Origin: Octopus sinensis
Lineage: Eukaryota
Length of the DNA stretch: 64,000 nt
Assembly (NCBI RefSeq): GCF_006345805.1
Contig: NC_043004.1
Coordinates: forward strand, 93,806,001-93,870,000
Direction of reading: 5' to 3'
The translations under genes were made by a program, and so were the position numbers. The stretch's first letter is position 1. Each line of letters starts with the position of its first letter. Positions 3,121 through 55,894 of the stretch are shown one piece after another. The notes under the pieces are model-generated. The model saw nothing but the letters and a program-made list of their open reading frames with translations, had not been told where the DNA came from and searched no databases.

Positions 3121-3589
3121 CAAAGTGTATATATCTGTAGTTATGTATATTAAACTTTCTCATACTTTTTCATAGTTATATATATTTTTAAACAAATTAT
3201 AAATATAATTTAATAATTTTTATTTTCAATTTAATTTGAATTTTTCAATTATATATTTTCTATATTATATTTTTTTTTTATGTTTTTGTTTTTGGTTTTT
3301 CACTGTTTGGTTTGCCTAACAATTCCATTTTTCACTTAAAATTTCAACCCCAATTAAGCAAAATTTAGAGAAAACTCACATTGGGGTGTATGAGTCAAAT
3401 GCTTCTCTTAGTGTGGGATACAGCACACTTAATTTGCTGGAGAATTAAGTTCCTGGATTTTCCTGAAGAGAAGGCTGCAAAATGGACTCCTTATTCAATC
3501 CGAATTAGGGACTTTGCAGCCTTTGAACCATATGTAGAAAATAATAAAAAGGAATTTTATTAAATCTTCGTTTCTTCCTACACTAAATA

Positions 3590-9649: not shown

Positions 9650-10940
9650 CGAGGGGCGTTCAATAAGTAATGCCCCTGACCCACTTGCAGTTGTTTGATC
9701 TAGCTGAAATTGCATGTGCAATTATTTATAGCTCTATAGATTAAGTGGCAACTTACAGCTCTGAACTAATTGTGGTTTCTGATTTACAGGTGTTTGAACT
9801 GAGTCAAGTGTGAAATGGAGCCTGTTGAGTGTCGAGCAGTGATCCAGTTTTTGCATTTGAAAGGACGCACACCACGGGAGACTTTTGATGAAATGAAAGT
9901 AACTTATGGTGATGATGCCCCATCATATGACCTTGTAAAACGATGGCATTGTGAATTCAAACTTGGTCGGAACTCTGTGGAAACGGCTCCCAGATCTCGT
10001 CGCCCCACTTCTGCCATTGATGAGGCATCTGTCCGTCAAGTTGAGGCTGCCATTTTGGAAGATCGACACATAACTATTCGCCAAGTAGCCCATGAGGTCA
10101 AAATTAGTACTAGGTCTATGGAAACTATCATTCATAACCATTTGCATATGCAAAAGGTGTCTGCCAGATGGATTCCCAGGTTGCTCACACCTTTCCAGAA
10201 GCAAGAACACGTCGAGTGCTCAAGGATGAATTTGGAGATGTGCCAAGAAGATGAGTCAACATTTTTCAAAAGACTGATTACACAGGATGAAACCTGGGTC
10301 TATCACTATGATCCAGAGACCAAAGCCCAGTCAATGAAGTGGAAGCACCGTGACTCACCTCCTCCAAAGAAGGCAAGGGTGCAGCCCTCCGCTGGCAAGG
10401 TCATGCTCACAGTCTTCTGGGACCAGGACGGAGTAGTGATGACAGATTTTCTGGCAAAGGGTACTACAATTACAAGAGCCTATTATGCTTCACTTTTGAG
10501 GAAATTAAGAGAAGCTATCAAAATCAAGAGGCGGGGCAAGATCAGCAAAGGCATCCTCCTCCTGCAGGACAACGCTCCGGACCACAACTCGCGTGTCGCC
10601 AGATCAGAAGCACAGGCATGCGGCTATGAACTCCTCCCCCATCCCCACTACTCTCCTGACCATGCACCCTCTGATTTTCACCTCTTCCCAGCCATGAAGT
10701 TGTTTTTGAAAGGAAAGCGTTTCCCAGATGATGCAGCCTTGATTTCTGAAGTCACGTCGTGGTTGGAGGACCAAGCTGGGGTCTTCTACAAAAACGGCCT
10801 CCAGAGCTGCATCAAACGATGGATGAAATGCGTAACTCTGGGTGGTTCCTATGTAGAAAAAGACTAATAACTGTGCCAAGTTTCGTTACTTTACTGCTAT
10901 GGGAGGTGGGTTAGGGACATTACTTATTGAACGCCCCTCG
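9650..10940 (+). mobile_element. Complete mariner transposon (irritans-like), ~1291 bp
   Basis: TIRs CGAGGGGCGTTCAATAAGTAATG / CATTACTTATTGAACGCCCCTCG; TA duplication on both sides; inserted into a family-D SINE. Confidence 0.97.
9815..10867 (+). CDS. Mariner transposase, DD34D, 350 aa, uninterrupted
   Basis: N-terminal HTH region, WIPRLL (WVPHEL motif), ITQDETW, LLQDNA, YSPDHAPSD; 34 residues between the 2nd and 3rd Asp. Confidence 0.95.
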   Translation: MEPVECRAVIQFLHLKGRTPRETFDEMKVTYGDDAPSYDLVKRWHCEFKLGRNSVETAPRSRRPTSAIDEASVRQVEAAILEDRHITIRQVAHEVKISTRSMETIIHNHLHMQKVSARWIPRLLTPFQKQEHVECSRMNLEMCQEDESTFFKRLITQDETWVYHYDPETKAQSMKWKHRDSPPPKKARVQPSAGKVMLTVFWDQDGVVMTDFLAKGTTITRAYYASLLRKLREAIKIKRRGKISKGILLLQDNAPDHNSRVARSEAQACGYELLPHPHYSPDHAPSDFHLFPAMKLFLKGKRFPDDAALISEVTSWLEDQAGVFYKNGLQSCIKRWMKCVTLGGSYVEKD

Positions 10941-14426: not shown

Positions 14427-15135
14427 TCAGGTCATCCCATGAGTTCTGTCCGAATTTTGAATAAAGAAAACAAGTGATCAAACGTTATATTTAATTGAAA
14501 TTTAATCATCAATGTACTTTCTCTGATTATCTATGACTTCCTTCCATCTATTTTCAAGCTTTTTAATCCTATCAATGTAAAACTCTTTTGGTTTCAAAGC
14601 GAAGAACTCTGAAATGTCAGTTTCGACCTCCTCCTGGCTTGCGAAAGTTATGTCCCCCAAATGATTCTGTAAACTACGAAACAAACAGTAGATCTGAAGG
14701 AGCAAGGTCGGGAGAATAAGGTGGATGAGGAGTTTTTTCCCAACCAAGCTCTTTGATCTTCTGTGATGTGATCTTTGCAGTGTGGGGTCGCGCATTGTCC
14801 TGATGAAACATCACTCCTTTTCGATTCACTGAAGTGGGTCTTTTTTTTCTTCAAAGCTTGATTCAAACTCTCTAATTGCTGACAGTAAACTTGAACATTG
14901 ATTGTTGCATTAGGTGGTAACAATTCAAAGTGAATTACTCCTTTGTAATCCCACCAGACAGAGAAGAACCTTTTTCCCATGAAGTTCCCTTCTCGGTTGT
15001 GGTTGAGCTTTTTACCTTTTACCAAGCCACTGTTTACGACGTCTAACATTTCGATATAAGATCCATTTTTCGTTACTAGTCACAAGTCTATACAAAAAGG
15101 GATAAATTTCATTGGTCGCCATCAATGAAATAGCA
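14427..15135 (-). pseudogene. Degenerate mariner element (second family), 3' part with one TIR
   Basis: Fragments VWWDYKGVIHFELLP, SPDLAPSD, FFALKPKEFY..I.KLENRWKEVID; TA|TCAGGTCATCCCAT terminus; frameshifts. Confidence 0.85.
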
Positions 15136-17859: not shown

Positions 17860-18025
17860 ACTGCATCGACCCCATTTTTAAACTGATTCTTATTTTATCG
17901 ACCCCGGAAGGATGAAAAGCGAAGTCGACCTAAGCGGGTTTTGTTCTCAAAACGTAAAGAGTCGGAAGAAGTCCTGCTAAGCATGTTGTCCGGCATGATA
18001 GGCATTCAGCCAGCTCGCTGCCATT
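17860..18025 (-). mobile_element. Family-D SINE, diverged
   Basis: ATCGACCCCGGAAGGATGAAAAGCGAAGTCGACC..GCCAGCTCGCTGCC. Confidence 0.8.
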
Positions 18026-18544
18026 ATAGTCATAAATAAATAGCATAGTATTGGTATATGTAACAATACTACAGTCATGCTACAGAGCTGGAGCGTGTAA
18101 AAGGAATCTATTGCTACTCAAATATTCTAGATTTTATACTTTCCCATATCTGTGTGAGTAGATGAAATTCATTCACCAGCACATGGCAATTTCTAGTAAC
18201 AAATCTGCAACATTAATCTTCTCCCCACTCACCCTCTCACTTACGCTGCTTTCATAACGGCTTCTCCCTGAAATAATACAGTTGCCCGCCACGATTGAAG
18301 CAATATCCACCCAGTTCCCCCAATTCATCATTCATGTTCCTCACTACAACACATCCACCAAAATCTGAACGAAACATGTTGCCCGAGTTTTCTCCCTAGA
18401 ATAGCATCCCTCTGGTAATCCCTCTCCACCGACAGTTTATTTTCTCCCTAAAACACTGCAGAATTCAAATTCAACATAAACCACATTGACATCGTATATC
18501 TGGTATGAAGATCGCCTCAATTCCTTGCTTAAATGATTTCTAAT

Positions 18545-18962
18545 GTGGTTGGCATCCTTTTTGTCTCGGGAGACAACGGAGTTGCGCATAAAGTAGTCTA
18601 GTCCGGCTTTTACATTTCATATCCTGATACATTTCCTGGACAAACACTCCCTCTGGCAGGTACCGCAAATGTAGCGAAGACTGTTCCTGGCTGGTTGTAA
18701 TGCCATAGTTTCTTGTTGACGTCTTTTCTTGTCTTTCCATTTCTCCTCTCTCTCTCTGTCACTCCTTTGTATTCCCTCTCTTACGGTACGTCGCCAGTCT
18801 CCACGGTTGTCGGCAACCGCCTCCCAATCGCTAATATTGATGTTGCAGGCCTTCATGTCTCTTTTGCAAACATCCTTGTAACGTAAGAGCGGTCTACCCA
18901 CAGACCTAGTACCCCTAGCAAGCTCTCCGCAGAGTATGTCCTTGGGGATTCTGCCATCTTTC
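18545..18962 (-). mobile_element. 5'-truncated RTE-clade LINE (ORF C-terminus + 3'UTR)
   Basis: DGRIPKDILCGEL..G.R..GRP.LRYKDVCKRDMK..W...A..R..WR..V..G and C..C.R.CLS; 14-bp TSD AAATGATTTCTAAT (18531-44 / 18963-76). Confidence 0.92.
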
Positions 18963-19808
18963 AAATGATTTCTAATACAGCTACACAATCAGAAAGTTTT
19001 TATGAGAGGGTAAAGTGGATTAAATCGATGGCAATACTCAGCGGATATTTTATTTTAACCACAAACTCGACATTGGTGGTATTTTAACTGAGAAACAATC
19101 GCAAAACTTTTTGCCCGTTCCTCAAACTGTTTTGAACTTTTCACCTACATGTTTAAAAAGTAATCTATAAAGCCACCGCCAACCACTTAATTGTAGCCCA
19201 ATGTTAAATTATCCAGAATATTTCAACAATTTTCTGTTTTATATTTTCACTTGTTTTTAGAAGAAATTTTGTATAGTTTTGTGCAAAACTTTTTCTGTCT
19301 GAGCGATCAACGCTTGACTGTTTTGCTGAAGACGCCATTTATTCTCAGAAAATTCAGAAATTTAACTCTTCAATTTAGTTATACGGAGAAAAGACACAAG
19401 CCTTTAAATTACATAATAAGGAAAAATTCTTGCTGGATCTAACATCGAATAGAAATTTCGCAATTATTTCAATTCATTAATTATGTGACTACGCATCTTA
19501 TTGCGTTATAATTCCTCGGTTTCCAGGACGAATTGGCGACAAAGATTATATTATTATATCGGCATTTTAATTGCTATTGCATGCTTTCTAAACACAACCG
19601 CTCCCAGCTTGCGTCTCCCTCAAGTATGTGCAGAATCTTTGTGTCGTTTTGTAGTTTTCTGTTGTATTGTTATATTACGTGCCATAGGTGCAGTACCATG
19701 GATGTGTATAAGTCTTGTTTACATTTTGTTGCCGAATTTTTTTTCTAATTAAACTCTTTATATTTTGCATTGCTTCTTCATTTCAGTCTCCATTATAGTT
19801 GCTTTGTG

Positions 19809-20407
19809 AAGGCGCATGGCTCAGTGGTTAGAGCGTCGAGCTTACGATCGTGAGGTTGTGTGCTCGAATCCCGGACCGGGCTGCGTGCTGTGCTCTTGAG
19901 CAAGACACTTTATTTCACGTTGTTCCAGTTCACTCAGCTGTAAATATGAGTTGCGACGTCACAGGTGCCAAGCTGTATCGGCCCCTTTGCCTTTTCCTTG
20001 GATAACACCGGTGGCGTGGAGAGGAGAAACCGGTATGCATGGGCGACTGCTGGTTTTCCATAAACAACCTAACTCGGACTTGTACCTGGAAGGATAACTT
20101 TCGGTAAAATTACAGATTAACACCAGCACGATTTTCAGTAAGAAAAAAAAAATCGGATTTTTTGCGTGGAATCAAGTACCCTGACCTCCTAATATGCTGG
20201 AAATCCCATATTTTGGTAACCCCCCTCCGGACCAATTCCGAACCAAAATATGGGATTTCCAGCATATTAGGTCAGGGTACTTGATTCCACGCAAAGAATC
20301 CGATTTTTTTTTCTTACTGAAAATCGTGCGGGTGTTAATCTGTAATTTTACCTAAATTTCTAGGTACAATCCCATGGTCTGTGTCGTGACCGAAGGGGGT
20401 TCTCAGA
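19809..20407 (+). mobile_element. tRNA-derived SINE family B interrupted by a MITE
   Basis: Head GGCGCATGGCTCAGTGGTTAGAGCG..CTCGAATCCC, body TTGAGCAAGACACTTTATTTCACG; TSD ATAGTTGCTTTGTG. Confidence 0.9.
20103..20352. mobile_element. Fold-back MITE, 250 bp, Merlin-like
   Basis: ~110-bp TIRs starting GGTAAAATTACAGATTAACACC; 8-bp TSD TAACTTTC / TAAATTTC. Confidence 0.8.
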
Positions 20408-20793
20408 ATAGTTGCTTTGTGAATCTTAAAGGATATTGGCAAAACCGGAATAGTTACACACATAAAAAAAATTTGCATTCATAGAGTAGCTATATATGAC
20501 ACTACGCATATATACGTGAAATTACCTTTTTGTTTGAACGTATCAGTATGTCCTACTGTGTGTTCAATTTTCGTTCTCTGAGCCCTTTTGTGCATTGTGT
20601 GTGTGCTGTGTGTGTGTAGTTGTGTGAGAAATCTTTTGCTGTGCGCACTATATGATGGTGGTATTATACGAAGACTTTAACCCTGTAAATTATGTAATTT
20701 TGTTTATTAGTCTCCGTTTTAACTAAGACTAATCAATGGTTCTTGTTTTTCTGCTTAATTTTGTTAATTAAATTAGTATCTAGTTGAGCATAT

Positions 20794-21088
20794 TGTCGTT
20801 TGTTCCTTCTCGAGCCACGCCTGGCTCATAGGGCCGGTTTCCTGGTTTCCTAGGCGTATAGGTTCCCCACCTGGACGGGACGCCAGTCCGTCGCAGGTGA
20901 TCTGCAAGATGCAGGAGGAAAGAGTGAGAGAAAGTTGTGGCGAAAGAGTCAGCAGAAGTTCGCCATTACCTTCTGCCAGAGCTTAGGAGATTCGCTCATA
21001 AATACACACATTGCCCGGTCTGAGATTCGAACCCGCGACCCCTCGACCGCGAGTCCGCTGCTCTAACGTCTAGGCCATCTGCCTCCAC
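20794..21088 (-). mobile_element. SINE family A-related (tail type 1)
   Basis: Reverse-complement tRNA head; TSD AGTTGAGCATAT. Confidence 0.85.
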
Positions 21089-21429
21089 AGTTGAGCATAT
21101 AATGGCTTATAAATAGAACAGCTAGAGTATTGCAATTTCTTGTCTAAGATTTTGCATTTATCTATTTTAAGTATTAATGTAGTTCATCTATAATATTCCT
21201 TCCTAAAATGATCTTTCATTTATATGTGTTGAACTATGTCTAGTTCGTTGCTTCCAAAGCATTTTAAGTCTGTGCTTTATAATTTTGTCTTATCTCTGTT
21301 TATCTTACATGACTTTGCTGGTGCTTATTCATATCTCTGGGTTAAATTTCCTATTAATTCCACTAGTAAATCCAGGCACTCTGTCGTAGAGTTTCTAGTT
21401 GCTTATTATCTACAGCATACATCTTGAGT

Positions 21430-21727
21430 GTGGAGGCGCAATGGCCCAGTGGTTAGGGCAGCGGACTCGCGGTCATAGGATCGCGGTTTCGATTCCCAGA
21501 CCGGGCGTTGTGAGTGTTTATTGAGCAAAAACACCTAAAGCTCCACGCGGCTCTGGCAGGGGATGGTGGTGATCCCTGCTGTACTCTTTCACCACAACTT
21601 TCTCTTACTTCCTGTTTCTGTTGTAATTTCTGTTGTAATTTCCACGTTAATTTCACGAGCAGGCTGTTCCGTTGACTCGGATCAACCGGAACCCTCGTCG
21701 TCGTAACCCACGGAGTGCTTCCACCAC
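21430..21727 (+). mobile_element. SINE family A (tail type 2, internal deletion)
   Basis: Near-identical to 13531; TSD ACATC(T/G)TGAGT. Confidence 0.9.
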
Positions 21728-21941
21728 ACATCGTGAGTTTATCCATATGCAAAGGACGATTAATTCTGCTCCAGCACAATTTGTATCCTAGATCAGCATC
21801 GTTTAACACGTTACTTTCACTTTGCAAGCGTAATAACATGTCCTGTACTTTCCCAGGTTTATTATCTTAAGAATATTATTTCTCTTGCTAGCATTTTTCT
21901 AAGTAATTCAAGTTTTTTTCTAGGCTATGCTATTATACTAA

Positions 21942-22337
21942 TCTTTATATATAAAAGTCAAGTTGTGTGTCTGTCTCCTACGATTTAGATTCCTAACTAC
22001 TCCCACATTTTGCGGTGCAGTTTAACCAAAACCGGGTATCTTATAGTCGTGATTCATATCGAGCCCTTCTGGATATTAGCGCGCGTCTACGATGAGTCTA
22101 CGATTTTTAAAAAAATTACCATCATTTTTTCCATTTTAATGCATTTTTTCGCTATTATATAAGGGAAGTAACTCTCTAAAAATGTCTACGATGAGTCAAC
22201 GATTTTTAAAAAAATTAACCATCATTTGTTTTGCATTTTTAATGCATTTTTTTGCTATTTTTTGGCTATAACTCTCTAAAAATGCTTATATAGTTATTTC
22301 CCTTACAAACCCGAGCAACGCCGGGCGATACTGCTAG
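21942..22337 (+). mobile_element. Non-autonomous Helitron
   Basis: A|TCTTTATATATAAAAG ... CCCGAGCAACGCCGGG..CTAG|T; internal partial duplication. Confidence 0.92.
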
Positions 22338-23019
22338 TTAATTATATGTCAATTAATAATTTAAGATTTTACCTTATTGAAAATATGCCGGTGACATATA
22401 TTAAAAGTCCCCTTATAGAATTATATTCATAAAAAAAGTATACAACAATATTATCACCCTCAAAATTGAGAAACAAACATGCATAACTTTTTTTCTTTTA
22501 AAACTTCATTGTATGAGAGTGATACCATGACATTCCTCTGATTGAACTCTATCATTTAAGCTTAATTAAAATATAGTTTATTTTTTAAATAAAAAGTTAA
22601 TTATACTTAAATCCAATTTTTTGCCTTACTTATATACTTTTTCATGATATTTTACCTCACAATGTTTTTTATACAAATTTTTGTTGTATGGTACCAATAC
22701 TCATGCTTTCCTCGCGCTTTCTTCTATTATTGAAGCTAAGATAAATATATTAAGAATATTATTCAACTACTACTGTACTTGAATGATGTATATATATGTA
22801 TATATATTTGTGTGTGTGTCCGCCATTGCTTGACAACTGATTCTGGTGTGTTTATGTCCCCTTAACCTAGCGGTTCGGCAAAATAGACTGATAGGATAAA
22901 TACTAACGTTAAAAAGAATATTCCCGAGGTCGATTTCTTCGACTAAGAACCTTTAGAAATTTAATATTTCTGATTTTGGTGATCAGTGAATAAACTTCTC
23001 TGAAAATATATATATATAT

Positions 23020-23274
23020 TTACGAAGTCTAGAGAAATATCTTCAGCTAGCAGGCCTCTGCTACTCTAGATTGATGATGGGCAAAACCCAGAAACATGCA
23101 TGTCTCTAGATGCAGGCCTAGCTGTTGGGAGTGTTTGTCTCCCCTTCGTAAATATATAAGGACACAGGATATGTGTCAAGGCCGACAGGAAGCGTCGATG
23201 CTTCCTAGGGCTAAACAGCGGTGGTGTAATTCCCTTACAGGACTGTCACGTTAAGTTGACAGTAGGCAACCACT
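23020..23274 (+). mobile_element. Short hammerhead-bearing element between (TA)n tracts
   Basis: ~255-bp unique block between two (TA)n tracts, containing the ribozyme below. Confidence 0.6.
23065..23110 (+). ncRNA. Minimal type-I hammerhead ribozyme, U3.G8 variant
   Basis: tctaga-TTGATGA-tggg(caaaa)ccca-GAAA-catgcatg-TC-tctaga; all three stems pair; GUC triplet at 23102-23104. Confidence 0.8.
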
Positions 23275-23714
23275 ATATATATATATATAATTATGCACAT
23301 ATGCATAAACCTATACATATACATACATATATGTACATATAAGCATACACACACATATACAAGTGTGTGTGCGCGTTACCACATTACAACTGTTTCTATG
23401 CACATATATCAATCATTTCTGAATTTCACCAACTTATACTAATGTGCTTAACTGAGGAGGTATAAAAACACAGAAACATGTAAGTTGCTTTCACCAGCTC
23501 ACTTCAACATCAAGATATACTCTCGTCTGCATCATATTAATTTACTGCAATTTCCGACTGGGCGATTGCTTGTTGATTTGAAATTTCTAACACAAATAGA
23601 TTAGGTTTTTGCTCAGTAATTATAGAGATAATATCGGCTAAGAGATTTATTTTTATCTCACTATATTTCGTAGTTGAGATTTCTATTGGGCATATGTTTG
23701 TGCGTGCTAGTATA

Positions 23715-24173
23715 TATATGTGTGTGTGTGTGTGTGTATGTGTGTATATGTGTGTGTGTGTGCGTGTGTGTGTGTATGAAACATACATCTGTACACGTAT
23801 ATATATATATAATATACATATGCAAAGTATATATATATATAATATACATATACACAGTATATATATATATACATATATATACATATACACATATATGCAT
23901 AAATGTATGCATATATATATATATATACATACAAATACATAAATACGTACATACATTCCTATGTATGTACGTATATAGAAATGTATATATGTAGATGTAA
24001 ATAAATATGTACTTTTATATGCTCATTTGTTTGTATGTGTAAATATATACATATATATGCATGTATATACACATATGTAGCTATGATATATCTATAAACG
24101 TACACATATACGTATTTGTATAGGTATATAAGTATATATAAATGCATATATATACGTATATGTATATATATAC

Positions 24174-24218
<45 letters not shown>

Positions 24219-24280
24219 CACACACACATATATATATATATACACACACATATGTACATACATCTGTGTATATATATGTG
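23715..24280. repeat. Compound (TG)n/(TA)n microsatellite
   Basis: Directly visible. Confidence 0.9.
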
Positions 24281-24777
24281 GTGTTCAAAATAAAACCTGC
24301 TTATTTTTATTTTCCTTCAGCCAAACAGAACGCTCTCTCTTCGTGCAGAAACTCGCTTATAAATTCTCTCAACACTTCTTTTCTTTTCTACCAATTAAAT
24401 TTAGCATTTCCAAAATGTCTTACAAATTACAACCACCAAAATTGCATGCTCTGGTCTCTAAATACCAGGTTGGATATAATTTGCATATATCGGTGCAAAT
24501 TAAAGACAACATTAAACATTAGATTTGGAAATGGGGTAGGAATAGCTTGCACTCATATCAATGTCACAATTTTGCATAAGATCTGGTTAAGGAAAGTGCG
24601 TAACGGCTTGCAAAATATTTCTGTTGAATATTTATTTTTTTCTGTCTGTTGATTATTTTTTTTCGTTCTTTCTTAATTTTTTCTTTTACATGAAGACCAT
24701 TTATACATTGATTTAATACAGTTGAAAAACCAGAGATTATAAATCAGAGTGTTTGAACTTCTCTTTTTCAAGATTAC

Positions 24778-24823
<46 letters not shown>

Positions 24824-24856
24824 GATTATTATTATTGTGGTGGTGGTGGTGGTGGT

Positions 24857-25060
24857 GGTGAGCTGGCAGAATTGTTAGCACGCCGAGCGAAATGCTTAGC
24901 AGTATTTCGTCTGCCGCTACGTTCTGAGTTCAGATTCCACCGAGGTCAACTTTGCCTGTCATCCTTTCGGGGTCGATAAATTAAGTATCTGTAAAACACT
25001 GTAATCGACTTATCCCTTCCTTCAAAATGGCTGCCCTTGTGGCAAAATTGGAAACCATTA
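24857..25060 (+). mobile_element. Family-D SINE between (TTA)n tracts
   Basis: GTGAGCTGGCAGAA..GTTCTGAGTTCAGATTCC..CTTTCGGGGTCGAT. Confidence 0.85.
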
Positions 25061-25073
25061 TTATTATTATTAC

Positions 25074-25112
<39 letters not shown>

Positions 25113-25814
25113 CGCGTGAGAGAGCAGCACATGCCATCTACCCCTCTGATAAGGGTATACCAGGCAAATGGATCACAACCATATGTACGCGACATGCGGA
25201 TCTCATATCAAGATAAACAGCGCATGACCTTGCAGGTGGGGGCCTATAAGAATTTTCTTCTAGTGGAGTAGCCCATCCCACCCAAAAAGTCTCTGTATAA
25301 GGACTGTATAAGAATAATGAATGAAACACCCATGTTTCTAGAGATGAATTTTTCAAACCTCAAAGAATTCCTCTCAACACATGGCTATGATGCCCCCCCC
25401 CACTTCTGCTCATGATCAGAGATGCTCATATCGGCAGCCACAAAGGGACATGCTCAACTGGTTAAGGACAAGCAATTGACAAGCAAATCTGTGGTAATGA
25501 GCAGAATATTTGCTGTAGCCCATCTTTTACACTAAGCCAAAACATGTAACAGATTAACAGAAACAATAAACAGCTCGACAAACTACACTGTGCTATAATT
25601 AACTATGTACTTCCTTCCATCCATACACTTACTCGAACCTAAACCGTGATCAGTTTCGCTTTTAATCCATCCGAGTGATTACACAAGTATCATTGAAGAA
25701 AAGAAAAGAAAAAAAAAACACTAATCTTGATACAATCGCCCAACTCCTTCCCAAAACTATCGTGGTACTTCGCCCAACGTTTAAAGTAATTCTTATTACT
25801 ATTATTATTCTGCC

Positions 25815-26340
25815 GATGTCGACTTTGCCTGTCATCCTTTCAGGGTCGGTAAATTAATTACCGGTGAAACACTAGGATCGATGGAAACGATTAGTCTTCA
25901 CCACCATCACCACCACCAAATTGTGTCTATAGTAGAATCGTTAGTACGCCGGGTAAAATGTTTAGTGGCATTTCATCTGTCTGCATGTTCTGAGTTCAAA
26001 TCCCACCGAGGTCAACCTTGCCTTTCATACATTCGGGATCTATAAGACAGGTAACAGTCGAGCACAGGGGGTGAATATAATCGACTAGCCCCTTCCACAA
26101 AATTTCCGGTCCTGTGTTATACTGAAAAGGTGCCAGGTTCTCAGAGTCGTTAGCACACCGGACAAATTGTTCATCGACATTTAGCCTTTCTTTACGTTCT
26201 GAGTTCAAATTCCGTCGAAGTTGACTTTACTTTTCATCCTTTCGGGATCGAGGAGATAAGTAAGTACACGGGGTCACTGTAATAGACTATCTTATTTCCC
26301 TAACGAATTTCAGGCATTGTGTTCTATAACAGAAATTATC
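25815..26340 (+). mobile_element. Head-to-tail cluster of diverged family-D SINEs
   Basis: Three units with the GTCGACTTTGCC..TCATCCTTTCGGG motif. Confidence 0.75.
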
Positions 26341-26356
26341 ATTATTATTATTATTA

Positions 26357-26395
<39 letters not shown>

Positions 26396-26968
26396 CATTA
26401 TTATGTGGTACGAGGCATTGTGGCCAGAGTAGAAATAATTATTATGATGAGGTAGATGAAAGGAAGAGATAACAGAGCCAGCAGATAGAAAACCAAGACT
26501 AGTGAGTGAGAGAGGTGGTGAATGGAAGAATATGGAGAAGGAAAGGCTAGAAGACGGAAGAGGTGATACGAGAAGAAGAAGAAGAAGAAGAAGAGCCAAT
26601 GAAAGTTGAAAGAAGGAATAACCCTGAGTAGAGACAACAGATGGAAGCGCCAGCGAAACATCGTAGAAAATATCTCACTGCACTTAATAACGCTACATCT
26701 TCCGAGTAAATGCCGCTGCGGTCAACGTAGCTTTTTACACACTCACATTCCTCGCAACCCAAACAAATTATATCGACTTTCCAAGACCTGTTGCTGTTGT
26801 TGGTTTCTTAGCACCTGATCGGTCTTGATTAAACAGAGGAACGTTCAAGTCAAGTCCATCACGTTTTTTTTTTTCTTCTTCAAACATAGTACAACTTTCC
26901 GCATCACTCTGTAGTCTCGACCCATTCCCGCCCGTGAATGCAACGCCATAAACAGTAGGGCACGCGCC

Positions 26969-27080
<112 letters not shown>

Positions 27081-27119
27081 ACACGTGTATATATATATAT
27101 ATATATATACATTCTTTCT

Positions 27120-27334
27120 TCTATTCTTTTACTTGTTTCAGTCATTTGACTGCGACCATGCGGGAGCACCACTTTTAGTCGATCAAATCGACCCCAAGAC
27201 TTATTCTTTTTAAGCCTAGTACTTATTCTATCGGCCTCTTTTCCTGAACCGCTAACTTACGGAGGTGTAAACACACTAACATCGGTTGTCAAGCAATCGT
27301 GGGGAGGACAAACACATGCACACAATTAAATACA

Positions 27335-27394
<60 letters not shown>

Positions 27395-27550
27395 CGACGG
27401 GCTTCTTTCAGTTTCCGTATACCAAGTCCACTCACAAAGCTTTGGTCGGCCCGCGGTTATAGTAGAAAACACTTGCCCAAGTACCACGCAGTGGGATTGA
27501 ACGGGGAACCATACGGCTGGAAGCGAGCTTCCTACCACACACAGCCTCGC

Positions 27551-27552
<2 letters not shown>
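27120..27552 (-). mobile_element. tRNA/CORE-type SINE family C with internal microsatellite
   Basis: CTTGGGCAAGT CORE-like motif, internal (TA)n, 3' GACTGAAACAAGTAAAAGA tail (reverse complement). Confidence 0.85.
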
Positions 27553-27616
<64 letters not shown>

Positions 27617-28067
27617 CAAATTGAGATAGGGGTTGTAAATGCAACCTTCCATGGGATAACATATATCCAATATACTGCTAGTGAAGTACCCAACAAAGTT
27701 AATACATAAATGTTAATGATTGCGATGCAATCAATTCATTTACTGTATTATATGGGCAAAGGTAAAATGATTTACCACAAATTACTAATACAAGATAAGA
27801 AAATGGAGAAATACATCTAAATCAAATATCAATTACCAGATAATACTCAATCACATACTTTATTAAACCACCACATAAGAGACTGTAGGGTTAAATATAA
27901 AAAGCAGAACAAATCAGTGTACATAAAGGAATGTACATAAAAAAGTGTACATAAAAGAGTAATGTTGTATAATAAGTAGAATATATATAAAAGAGAATAT
28001 AAATATAAGTAAATATAAATATAAGTATAGATTACATCTTACAGCTATATATATATATAAATATTAA

Positions 28068-38324: not shown

Positions 38325-38370
38325 GACACCTGATGAAGGCTGGAGGGTATATCAGCCGAAACGTTGTGTT
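38325..38370 (+). ncRNA. Minimal type-I hammerhead ribozyme (canonical core, loop-less stem III)
   Basis: gacac-CTGATGA-a-ggctg(gagggtatat)cagcc-GAAA-cg-TT-gtgtt; follows a (TAA)n tract. Confidence 0.8.
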
Positions 38371-50707: not shown

Positions 50708-50775
<68 letters not shown>

Positions 50776-50776
50776 T

Positions 50777-51087
50777 AAATGAAAAGAATGGAGTCGAACG
50801 AAGATTTTAACAAAATTCTTCTACTTTCGACATATGTTTCGAAGACTGCATACTCTTAATTCCGAAGGAATGAAGGTTGCATTATGCCGTCTTCTCATCG
50901 GAAATACAAGGAACCTCAATCAGCCTCAAGACGTCTTGAGGCTGATTGAGGTTCCTTGTATTTCCTGATGAGAAGACGGCATAATGCAACCTCATTCCTT
51001 CGGAATTAAGAGTATGCAGTCTTCGAAACATATGTCGAAAGTAGAAGAATTTTGTTAAAATCTTCGTTCGACTCCATTCTTTTCATT
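50777..51087. repeat. Spacer-less palindrome, ~155-bp arms, centre ACGT at 50931-50934
   Basis: Arms reverse-complementary except for ~2 single-base indels; abuts (TA)n. Confidence 0.95.
50961..51040 (+). ncRNA. Type-I hammerhead ribozyme with long stem II and palindromic stem III
   Basis: tttc-CTGATGA-gaagac.gcata[...]tatgc.gtcttc-GAAA-catatg-TC-gaaa; the mirror copy on minus (~50825-50904) lacks one core T. Confidence 0.8.
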
Positions 51088-51511
51088 TTCATATAAAAAA
51101 ACACACAAATTTCCACACACGAACACGGGGTCTGCCCTTGGCATGTAACTTCAACCGTGTTTTACTGACGTGAATTTGCTACCCAGGTATCGATAACCGA
51201 ATTATCCATACTAGGATAATTAATTCATCTCTTATATATATATATATAATATATATATATATAATATCTATATATATATATATATAATATTCACACATAC
51301 ACCACACAGCAAAGAGAAGAAACAGTAAACAGTGACATCGAAGTTCCACCAGTGGTTGCATTAATGCGACTGTCTGATGAAACTTCCGCCGAAACGCCAA
51401 GGCACTATGCTGTAAGTACTCAATATCATTTACATTTAACATTTTTAATAACACAAAACCCACCATAACGCTTTTACATAAGCTATAAGTTGGCTTTGAT
51501 ATAAGTAACCC

Positions 51512-55300: not shown

Positions 55301-55894
55301 AAATGATATCTTAAATGAACGATTTGAGTTTTAATTATGATACAAGCATTAATCTGAAATACCAACAGTGTAGACACTCCCACAACATTTGAACTTCGAA
55401 CTTCATATGTATGGTGCCGAAGAAATTGACCGTAGACACTGAAGATATTTCTATGAGGACCCTAGAAATACAAGAAATAGTTAACGCATTTCACTCAAAC
55501 CACATCCTAGGGGAATTACAACAGCTCCTTTATAGGATCCAGTTAGCTCAAGACATCATCAAGAGGAACCACGTCCGGTTTCGGCCCCTACTCCTCTTGG
55601 AGGTGTCTTCAGCTCTGGTGTTGGGTGCATGTCTTCTTTCTTCTTCTTTCTTCTGTTCCCTGGCCTCTTCGATGTATCGTCTTTCGAAAAAAATATCAAA
55701 GAACATAAAGAACGTTGTTGGATAATGCGTTGCGGGTTATATACATCTATGTTTGAACAAACAGTCGGAATGTTTATTGCTGCCATGGCCTTAAACGCTT
55801 TTGTCACTGTATTTCTGTGGAAATTGATTTTGAGTAAATTAATTTCGAAAATAATAATGAATGAAGTAAAATAACTAAATTATTAAGCTGGCAG

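Follow-up and report, generated by a model that had tools for sequence, protein, structure and literature searches.

A canonical type I hammerhead in a solo, 5′-truncated copy of a 355-nt octopus repeat, likely a Penelope-mobilised retrozyme

Does the hammerhead motif at positions 23065–23110 of the window (the whole 64-kb stretch of Octopus sinensis DNA analysed here) mark a working ribozyme that assembles through two palindromic helices, or a decayed member of a wider family? An earlier note had described it as a 46-nt hammerhead with palindromic stems I and III and a U3·G8 core. With a probability of about 0.8, we propose that it is a canonical type I hammerhead in a solo, 5′-truncated copy of a 355-nt repeat, that this repeat is likely a Penelope-mobilised retrozyme, and that the window copy itself is likely slow or dead.

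The hammerhead and the state of its core

Reading of the sequence confirmed each part of the motif (Table 1): every stem is Watson–Crick paired and the GUC triplet is in place. Both stem I strands are the palindrome TCTAGA, as described, which counts as one fact rather than two, since a palindromic strand forces an identical partner. The size of 46 nt did not hold up, because stem I runs on via a UAC bulge into a rod spanning 23015–23156. None of 200 shuffles folded as well as this rod (z −5.8); a 66-nt piece folded alone did no better than its shuffles (z −0.95). In 68 of 75 copies TAC stands directly 5′ of stem I, and a loop II starting with CAA is conserved, the window copy carrying a G-to-A change relative to the family majority at 23085 in this loop. 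By analogy with the canonical type I fold described in PMC7229834 and PMC4209133, the UAC bulge is predicted to dock on loop II.

Table 1. Coordinates of the repeat copy and its parts in the window
Feature	Positions	Strand	Remark
5′-truncated repeat copy, ~0.9 unit	22952..23274	+	Locus L001; circular positions 50>17 of the L066 period
ATCAGT(G) motif	22982..22988	+	57 nt 5′ of 23039; predicted snRNA-type promoter element
5′ arm of extended stem I rod	23015..23064	+	Ends in UAC bulge 23062-23064
LINE target	23039..23054	+	Duplicated in other copies, empty in window copy; base 1 is the predicted transcription start
Stem I 5′ strand TCTAGA	23065..23070	+	Palindromic in window subfamily only
Catalytic core TTGATGA (U3-U4-G5-A6-U7-G8-A9)	23071..23077	+	Private C-to-T change at T23071
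Stem II (4 bp) and 5-nt loop II	23078..23090	+	Paired strands 23078-23081/23087-23090
G12-A13-A14 (GAA)	23091..23093	+	
Self-complementary stem III ACATGCATGT	23094..23103	+	
C17, GUC triplet	23104	+	Predicted cut 3′ of 23104
Stem I 3′ strand TCTAGA	23105..23110	+	
3′ arm of extended stem I rod	23105..23156	+	Includes stem I 3′ strand; from folding
Three small hairpins	23161-23177, 23187-23206, 23242-23263	+	3′ part of copy, 23161..23263

G5, A6, A9, G12-A13-A14, A15.1-U16.1 and H17 are all present, and the three helices surround the core in type I order. This arrangement is backed by covariation: in 12 copies hand-picked to span several subfamilies, 14 of the 17 pairs changed on both sides, a count matched by none of 500 shuffles and compared with 1–3 pairs in slid controls. 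The stems are thereby seen to be conserved in related copies, a point on which the earlier note had staked its reading. A loose type I scan of the 64-kb window returned two motifs, the 23065 region and one at 50965; a stricter type I descriptor gave a single match in the window and none in 300 approximate dinucleotide shuffles (19.2 Mb, both strands). Rfam yielded no window match at gathering score, and the 94 weak matches at E≤10 within 18000–28000 were microsatellite-driven, with no hammerhead family among them. Judged from its sequence, the catalytic core at 23065–23110 belongs to a canonical type I hammerhead. Cleavage is expected after C23104, at a site whose surrounding structure is established by covariation.

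The core departs from that of its relatives at position 3. The base at 23071 is C in all 31 other copies of a first alignment and in all 53 aligned relatives of a larger set; in exact genomic patterns the C3 version has at least 39 matches and the U3 version at least one, the window itself. In contigs of four sequencing runs guessed to be RNA, 23071 reads C, not T, in three, and the fourth lists no difference, at low depth. Among 75 distinct hammerheads (from loci L001–L143, two of the 75 belonging to unrelated families), positions 3 and 8 are C-G in 65, U-A in 8 and U·G in 2, and in a sister set (n = 33) they are U-A in 32 and U·G in 1. The Watson–Crick 3–8 pair thus switches by whole subfamily, with U·G confined to single copies, and is a property of the family that the window copy (U3·G8) lacks. 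Compared with the family majority, the copy has 9 differences over 323 positions, where the family median is 2.8%, so that its divergence appears ordinary, like that of a neutral copy, and the comparison of copies marks U3·G8 as its private decay. A strong slowdown is expected from C3U on structural grounds, and the private C3-to-U change is predicted to make the window copy, in all likelihood, a slow or dead ribozyme. C3-G8 is a Watson–Crick pair in the active hammerhead fold (PMC3884650, PMC3088659).

The window copy had been put forward as the best candidate here for a still-active ribozyme. This view had to be given up because U3·G8 is a private decay; the copy is, moreover, solo, 5′-truncated and ordinarily diverged, and the hammerhead at 50965 has C3-G8. 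Some residual activity may be preserved by a U·G wobble. Computation populates the active monomer fold slightly more in the window copy (0.7–1.0%) than in a C3 copy (0.3%). Hammerheads are not equally tolerant of core changes (PMC3884650, PMC2920678), and a natural variant that combines U3/G8 with an added insertion has been described (PMC7151607). The literature searched, which was covered in part, yielded no measured rate for a U3·G8 or C3U core. Only one of nine predicted retrozyme dimers is described as cleaving (10.64898/2026.07.22.740005), so even intact copies of the family may be inactive.

Other hammerheads and hammerhead-like sequences were also seen. The motif at 50965, on the plus strand, lies in a near-perfect inverted repeat (50768–51095) and is a second type I hammerhead, with an unmutated C3-G8, a long stem II, a palindromic stem III and C17 at 51036; the mirrored arm misses one core base. 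The inverted repeat resembles a Penelope-type end with an inverted 5′ copy, and a decayed relative lies at 3449–3572. Loose core-like matches at 38330, 51374 and 23452 (plus strand) and at 55612 and 14203 (minus strand) include some that look like minimal hammerheads of Penelope-like elements (PLEs) and may be chance. Within the repeat family, one subfamily (L088, L104, L118, L129 and others) has two features fixed in many copies: C4 in the core and a U·U mismatch at the base of stem II. A U·U mismatch at this place, found in some subfamilies, also occurs in HHR_Amex2 (PMC7229834), and U4C has been reported to lower hammerhead activity in vitro (PMC3088659).

Palindromic stems and predicted dimer formation

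The same note had held that the motif could fold as a monomer or as intermolecular dimers and multimers through two helices. What stood is the dimer through stem III, which folding favours and which is the published norm. The double hammerhead is the cofold minimum, at −30.5 kcal/mol compared with −17.2 kcal/mol for two monomers (2 × −8.6); these are secondary-structure energies, with tertiary energy not counted. The active monomer fold makes up <1% of the secondary-structure ensemble. Of the 13 sequences found for stem III, seven are perfectly palindromic over 6, 8 or 10 nt, and 11 self-pair once G·U is allowed. Four different central dinucleotides occur among the seven palindromic types, and the palindromic character of stem III persists across subfamilies. 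A palindromic helix III with cleavage in the dimer is the model published for animal type I hammerheads (PMC4209133). From the modelled energies, the conserved stem III palindrome most likely serves double-hammerhead pairing, and cutting in the family is predicted to take place in pairs held together by the stem III palindrome, not by two palindromes.

What did not stand is multimerisation through two helices as a special feature. Retention of TCTAGA/TCTAGA in 54 of 75 copies would favour the earlier model, in which an active ribozyme at this site uses both palindromes to build dimers and higher multimers, but all 54 are close kin, and diverged subfamilies pair stem I without a palindrome. Only one of five fully paired stem I types is palindromic, the other four being no palindromes, and stem I of the sister subfamily is non-palindromic. 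Pairing itself is held by compensatory change in all six pairs across the 12 hand-picked copies. A dimer needs no palindrome in stem I because this stem pairs the 5′ strand of one molecule with the 3′ strand of the other. In L082, which has a naturally non-palindromic stem I, the dimer lies within 0.2 kcal/mol of the cofold minimum, and in L146 the double hammerhead lies 1.0 kcal/mol above it. The 6-bp stem I palindrome forms a duplex of only −5.2 kcal/mol compared with −13.3 kcal/mol for stem III, and such like-with-like pairing of stem I gives no active site. The perfect stems, the intact GUC site, the cofold preference for a dimer, a promoter-like motif retained in the window copy and a possible U·G wobble do accord with the model of two working palindromes; since U3 is private to this copy, the copy has diverged as a neutral one and the stem I duplex is weak and builds no active site, we consider that model unlikely. 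Among the subfamilies compared, only one has a palindromic stem I, and there by chance.

Taken alone, the motif is unremarkable: both a palindromic helix III and cleavage in the dimer are already the published norm, and the window copy is decayed. The family, by contrast, forms a natural series with stem III palindromes of 6, 8 and 10 nt and with C3-G8, U3-A8 and C4 cores, with which the choice between monomer and dimer can be tested directly. The flanks of L028 and L094 hold two more type I hammerheads, unrelated to the others, that have GUA cut sites and a self-complementary stem III.

The repeat unit and its probable mobilisation

The window holds no second copy of the repeat, so that its copy is a solo monomer; it ends at the commoner 3′ end of the family, in a (TA)n run, and no ORF of 120 aa was found over 22952–23274. 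A genome search with 23020–23275 gave 3338 candidates, of which 40 were scored, the full-length matches being 93–96% identical; the 3′ part (23161..23263) is common to more diverged subfamilies. Its period is 355 nt in locus L066, with a GC content of 42%. Folded as a circle, the natural L066 unit reaches −135.6 kcal/mol with 69% of its bases paired (z −9.5; 0/60 shuffles). The sequence past the 3′ end of many copies is the sequence found 5′ of the ribozyme in others, and the junction is read through at 12 loci. The 3′ ends fall into two clusters ~58 nt apart; the 5′ ends are ragged, often with an inverted piece, and no fixed 5′ boundary was seen. Flanks of (TA)n are frequent among the copies.

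A sister subfamily (2530 candidates) is 57% identical and has a period of 358–362 nt, and two whole hammerheads in tandem occur at 5 distinct places among 30 of its loci. No such tandem was found in the window subfamily among L001–L073, where the longest continuous stretch is 468 nt, and a pattern search for it, which sets a lower bound, gave 0 matches; partial tandems of up to 468 nt do occur there. The contigs of the four runs guessed to be RNA are far deeper on 23155–23256 than on the ribozyme. We rejected this skew as an expression signal because three large runs of unknown kind are equally skewed, and we read it as the 3′ part being shared by subfamilies.

The unit is non-coding, falls within 150–450 bp, has a GC content below 50%, bears a canonical type I hammerhead with a short palindromic helix III, and folds, by computation, into a strongly self-paired circle. 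All of these traits are those of metazoan non-LTR retrozymes as described in PMC7229834, examples of which are 350–390 bp in Mytilus, Rtz331 and Rtz353 in axolotl, and 225–245 bp in Acropora. Unlike the elements described there, the window subfamily occurs as solo copies and partial tandems, with tandem dimers only in its sister; helix III is longer here (3 bp plus a tetraloop), and the repeat is known here from DNA. It also fits the monomers described in 10.64898/2026.07.22.740005. The words ‘Octopus’ and ‘cephalopod’ are absent from the main text of PMC7229834, and no report of cephalopod retrozymes was found in the part of the literature searched, whose supplements may include such repeats.

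Likenesses to PLEs are equally clear. With the hammerheads of their terminal repeats (pLTRs), as given in PMC4209133, the family shares the palindromic helix III, the dimer model and, in one subfamily, the U3-A8 covariation; with PLEs in general (PMC8557442, 10.64898/2026.07.22.740005) it shares 5′ truncation, partial tandems, inverted 5′ copies, an optional 3′ tail and microsatellite flanks, the tail measuring ~58 nt here as against 30–40 nt in PLEs. In contrast to PLE pLTRs, the repeat comes without an RT/endonuclease ORF and its hammerhead is canonical, not minimal.

In the cycle that we envisage, transcription would start near 23039 from an snRNA-type promoter within the unit, marked by ATCAGT at 22982. 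A fold of stem I (including the UAC bulge), stem II and the core, for which covariation speaks directly, would then form, and the RNA would be cut after C23104. Two units would, as computed, pair via stem III into a double hammerhead, since stem III makes a poor hairpin yet is self-complementary. As in published retrozymes, tandem transcripts would be cut to unit length and would then circularise, and a Penelope-like RT/endonuclease would copy the circles back into the genome. Copying of this kind would produce fixed 3′ ends, ragged 5′ ends, inverted 5′ pieces and partial tandems, which is the pattern observed, and the Penelope-like insertion marks described in PMC8557442 match the ends of the repeat.

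The unit closes on itself without the RT and GIY-YIG ORF of an autonomous Penelope-like element: its flanks lead back into the unit itself, where no ORF is found, and sister units stand head to tail at 358–362 nt. These features make it very unlikely that the repeat is instead the solo pLTR of an autonomous Penelope-like element and no stand-alone retrozyme, a reading to which the insertion marks of Penelope type, the predominance of solo copies and the kinship of retrozymes and pLTRs described in 10.64898/2026.07.22.740005 lend some weight. The hammerhead, too, is canonical, with a 6-bp stem I, a 4-bp stem II and a bulge, and not of the minimal PLE type described in PMC4209133, and the only shared long neighbours found are L1/Tx1-type LINEs.

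Other repeats surround the element in the window. A SINE-like interspersed repeat (22786–22946, minus strand) lies directly 5′ of it and has at least seven further window copies of 69–81% identity. A mariner-type transposase with a 354-aa open frame and matches to the Mos1 HTH and DDE domains occupies 9803–10867 (plus strand), and a shorter remnant of a mariner-type transposase occupies 14648–15079 (minus strand). A scan of 17 window ORFs for host gene context gave mariner transposase matches only. At 1436–2011, a unit (family D5) occurs four times at a spacing of ~164–172 nt.

Promoter-like motif and LINE landing site

In the U2 and U1 genes of this genome, ATCAGT lies 57–61 nt 5′ of base 1 at 19 of 20 and 18 of 20 loci, respectively (37/40). 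The upstream regions of the window copy's own family, many of them truncated, contain an exact ATCAGT in 22 of 41 cases, 15 of these at 57–58 nt, where chance predicts 0.0014 per site. With the motif 57 nt upstream, at a spacing as in the U1/U2 genes, 23039 is likely the transcription start, and transcription from this base is predicted. The case is weakened in the sister subfamily, because none of its 17 upstream regions has an exact ATCAGT; one has it with a single mismatch, and otherwise the subfamily shows a two-mismatch version. A conserved AT-rich hairpin at the longer 3′ end could be an RT recognition signal; the same motif stands ~85 nt 5′ of U1 genes, so that it may instead be promoter sequence.

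Newt satellite 2 has an snRNA-type promoter (Coats et al. 1994, cited in PMC2220036) and, like the present family, is a hammerhead repeat of ~330–355 bp in which this promoter is internal, predicted here from the U1/U2 motif. The octopus repeat differs from it in being dispersed, with no satellite arrays, and in that its promoter is a predicted one. The motif suggests that snRNA-type promoters drive retrozymes outside amphibians.

Several other copies of the repeat are interrupted at the equivalent of 23039–23054, 26 nt 5′ of stem I. The inserts encode pieces of endonuclease, RT and zf-RVT, with L1 ORF2 as the nearest solved structure; their frames are broken, and the domain scan was run on separate pieces. 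One insert measures 5.4 kb, and those of a second family are mostly ~1.65 kb. The 3′ ends of the two LINE families run into the repeat group at 14 of 30 and 22 of 30 loci (36 of the 60 sampled), counts that were obtained by querying with the last 300 bases of each family and reading the flanks, that include the query copy, and that lean to close relatives because the sets are the best 30 of 229 and the best 30 of 318 candidates. The remaining LINE copies sit elsewhere, so the site is preferred, not exclusive. Where present, the hammerhead core begins 19–34 nt past the LINE end. Target duplications of 14–21 bp were found at 24 of 60 short loci, most of the others having no LINE 5′ end within 1.8 kb; none was found at L077, L078 (where a 12-mer proved spurious) or L080. 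Three or more subfamilies, which differ in target sequence, carry such insertions, all of them co-oriented and with the ribozyme intact downstream, and contigs of run X17, labelled as another organism, join a LINE end at 23039 as well.

An APE endonuclease, an RT and a C-terminal zinc-binding domain, together with a duplicated target and one site of a multicopy sequence found in well over 20% of the flanks, are the marks of target-specific Tx1-clade LINEs given in PMC4494074, and from them we infer that the inserts belong to this clade. Tx1-type LINEs target other repeats, Tx1 inserting in Tx1D, Keno in U2 genes and Tx1-Mar in Mariner-N4 (PMC4494074). Unlike the targets described for these three, the present one is a ribozyme repeat whose subfamilies are only ~57% alike and is a predicted transcription start. 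LINEs aiming at a single base of a ribozyme repeat would extend the known range of Tx1 targeting; none aimed at retrozymes was found among the papers searched, a part of the literature.

The least probable reading of the locus, and one that we discount, is that of a SINE-like element with an snRNA promoter, copied by L1/Tx1 LINEs and carrying the ribozyme as a passenger, for which the tight physical association with two LINE families and the promoter-like motif might be cited: the LINEs inside the unit carry target duplications of their own, the inverted 5′ piece at L064/L077 derives from an empty unit, so that the LINE there arrived after the repeat, the copies contain sequence 5′ of the predicted start that a plain SINE would lose, and the ribozyme pairs covary between subfamilies.

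For the preferred reading, a Penelope-mobilised retrozyme into other copies of which LINEs inserted, the LINEs probably favour the 23039 position because transcription starts there. A wider scheme, to which we would give less than even odds, is that these ribozyme replicons run on a borrowed U1/U2-type promoter, that L1/Tx1 LINEs home via the promoter complex and not via the sequence of the cut site, and that Penelope enzyme, retrozyme and LINE form a chain of parasites. Guidance by the promoter is suggested by the same landing position in subfamilies only ~57% alike and by a sister LINE lineage at base 1 of U2: L193, the sole U2 locus without ATCAGT, has a related LINE end at base 1. If the scheme is true, a LINE would acquire an upstream promoter and, ~65 nt past its 3′ end, a regenerated hammerhead that could define the end of the LINE RNA. 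Should the promoter complex set the aim, it would represent a mode of LINE target choice worth testing.

The LINE that ends at base 1 of the U2 gene in L193 is 72% related to family A, and short LINE-end matches occur in the U1 cluster (L201, L202), though not at base 1 by the pattern used. Copies of family B (L114, L116, L120, L124, L125, L129, L130, L133 and L139) almost all measure 1.62–1.69 kb; their near-uniform length, intact ends and duplications suggest a short non-autonomous element. L075 contains an ORF1-like frame with a weak zinc knuckle. At L132, L109 and L131, LINE copies are stacked head to tail with a regenerated target between them.
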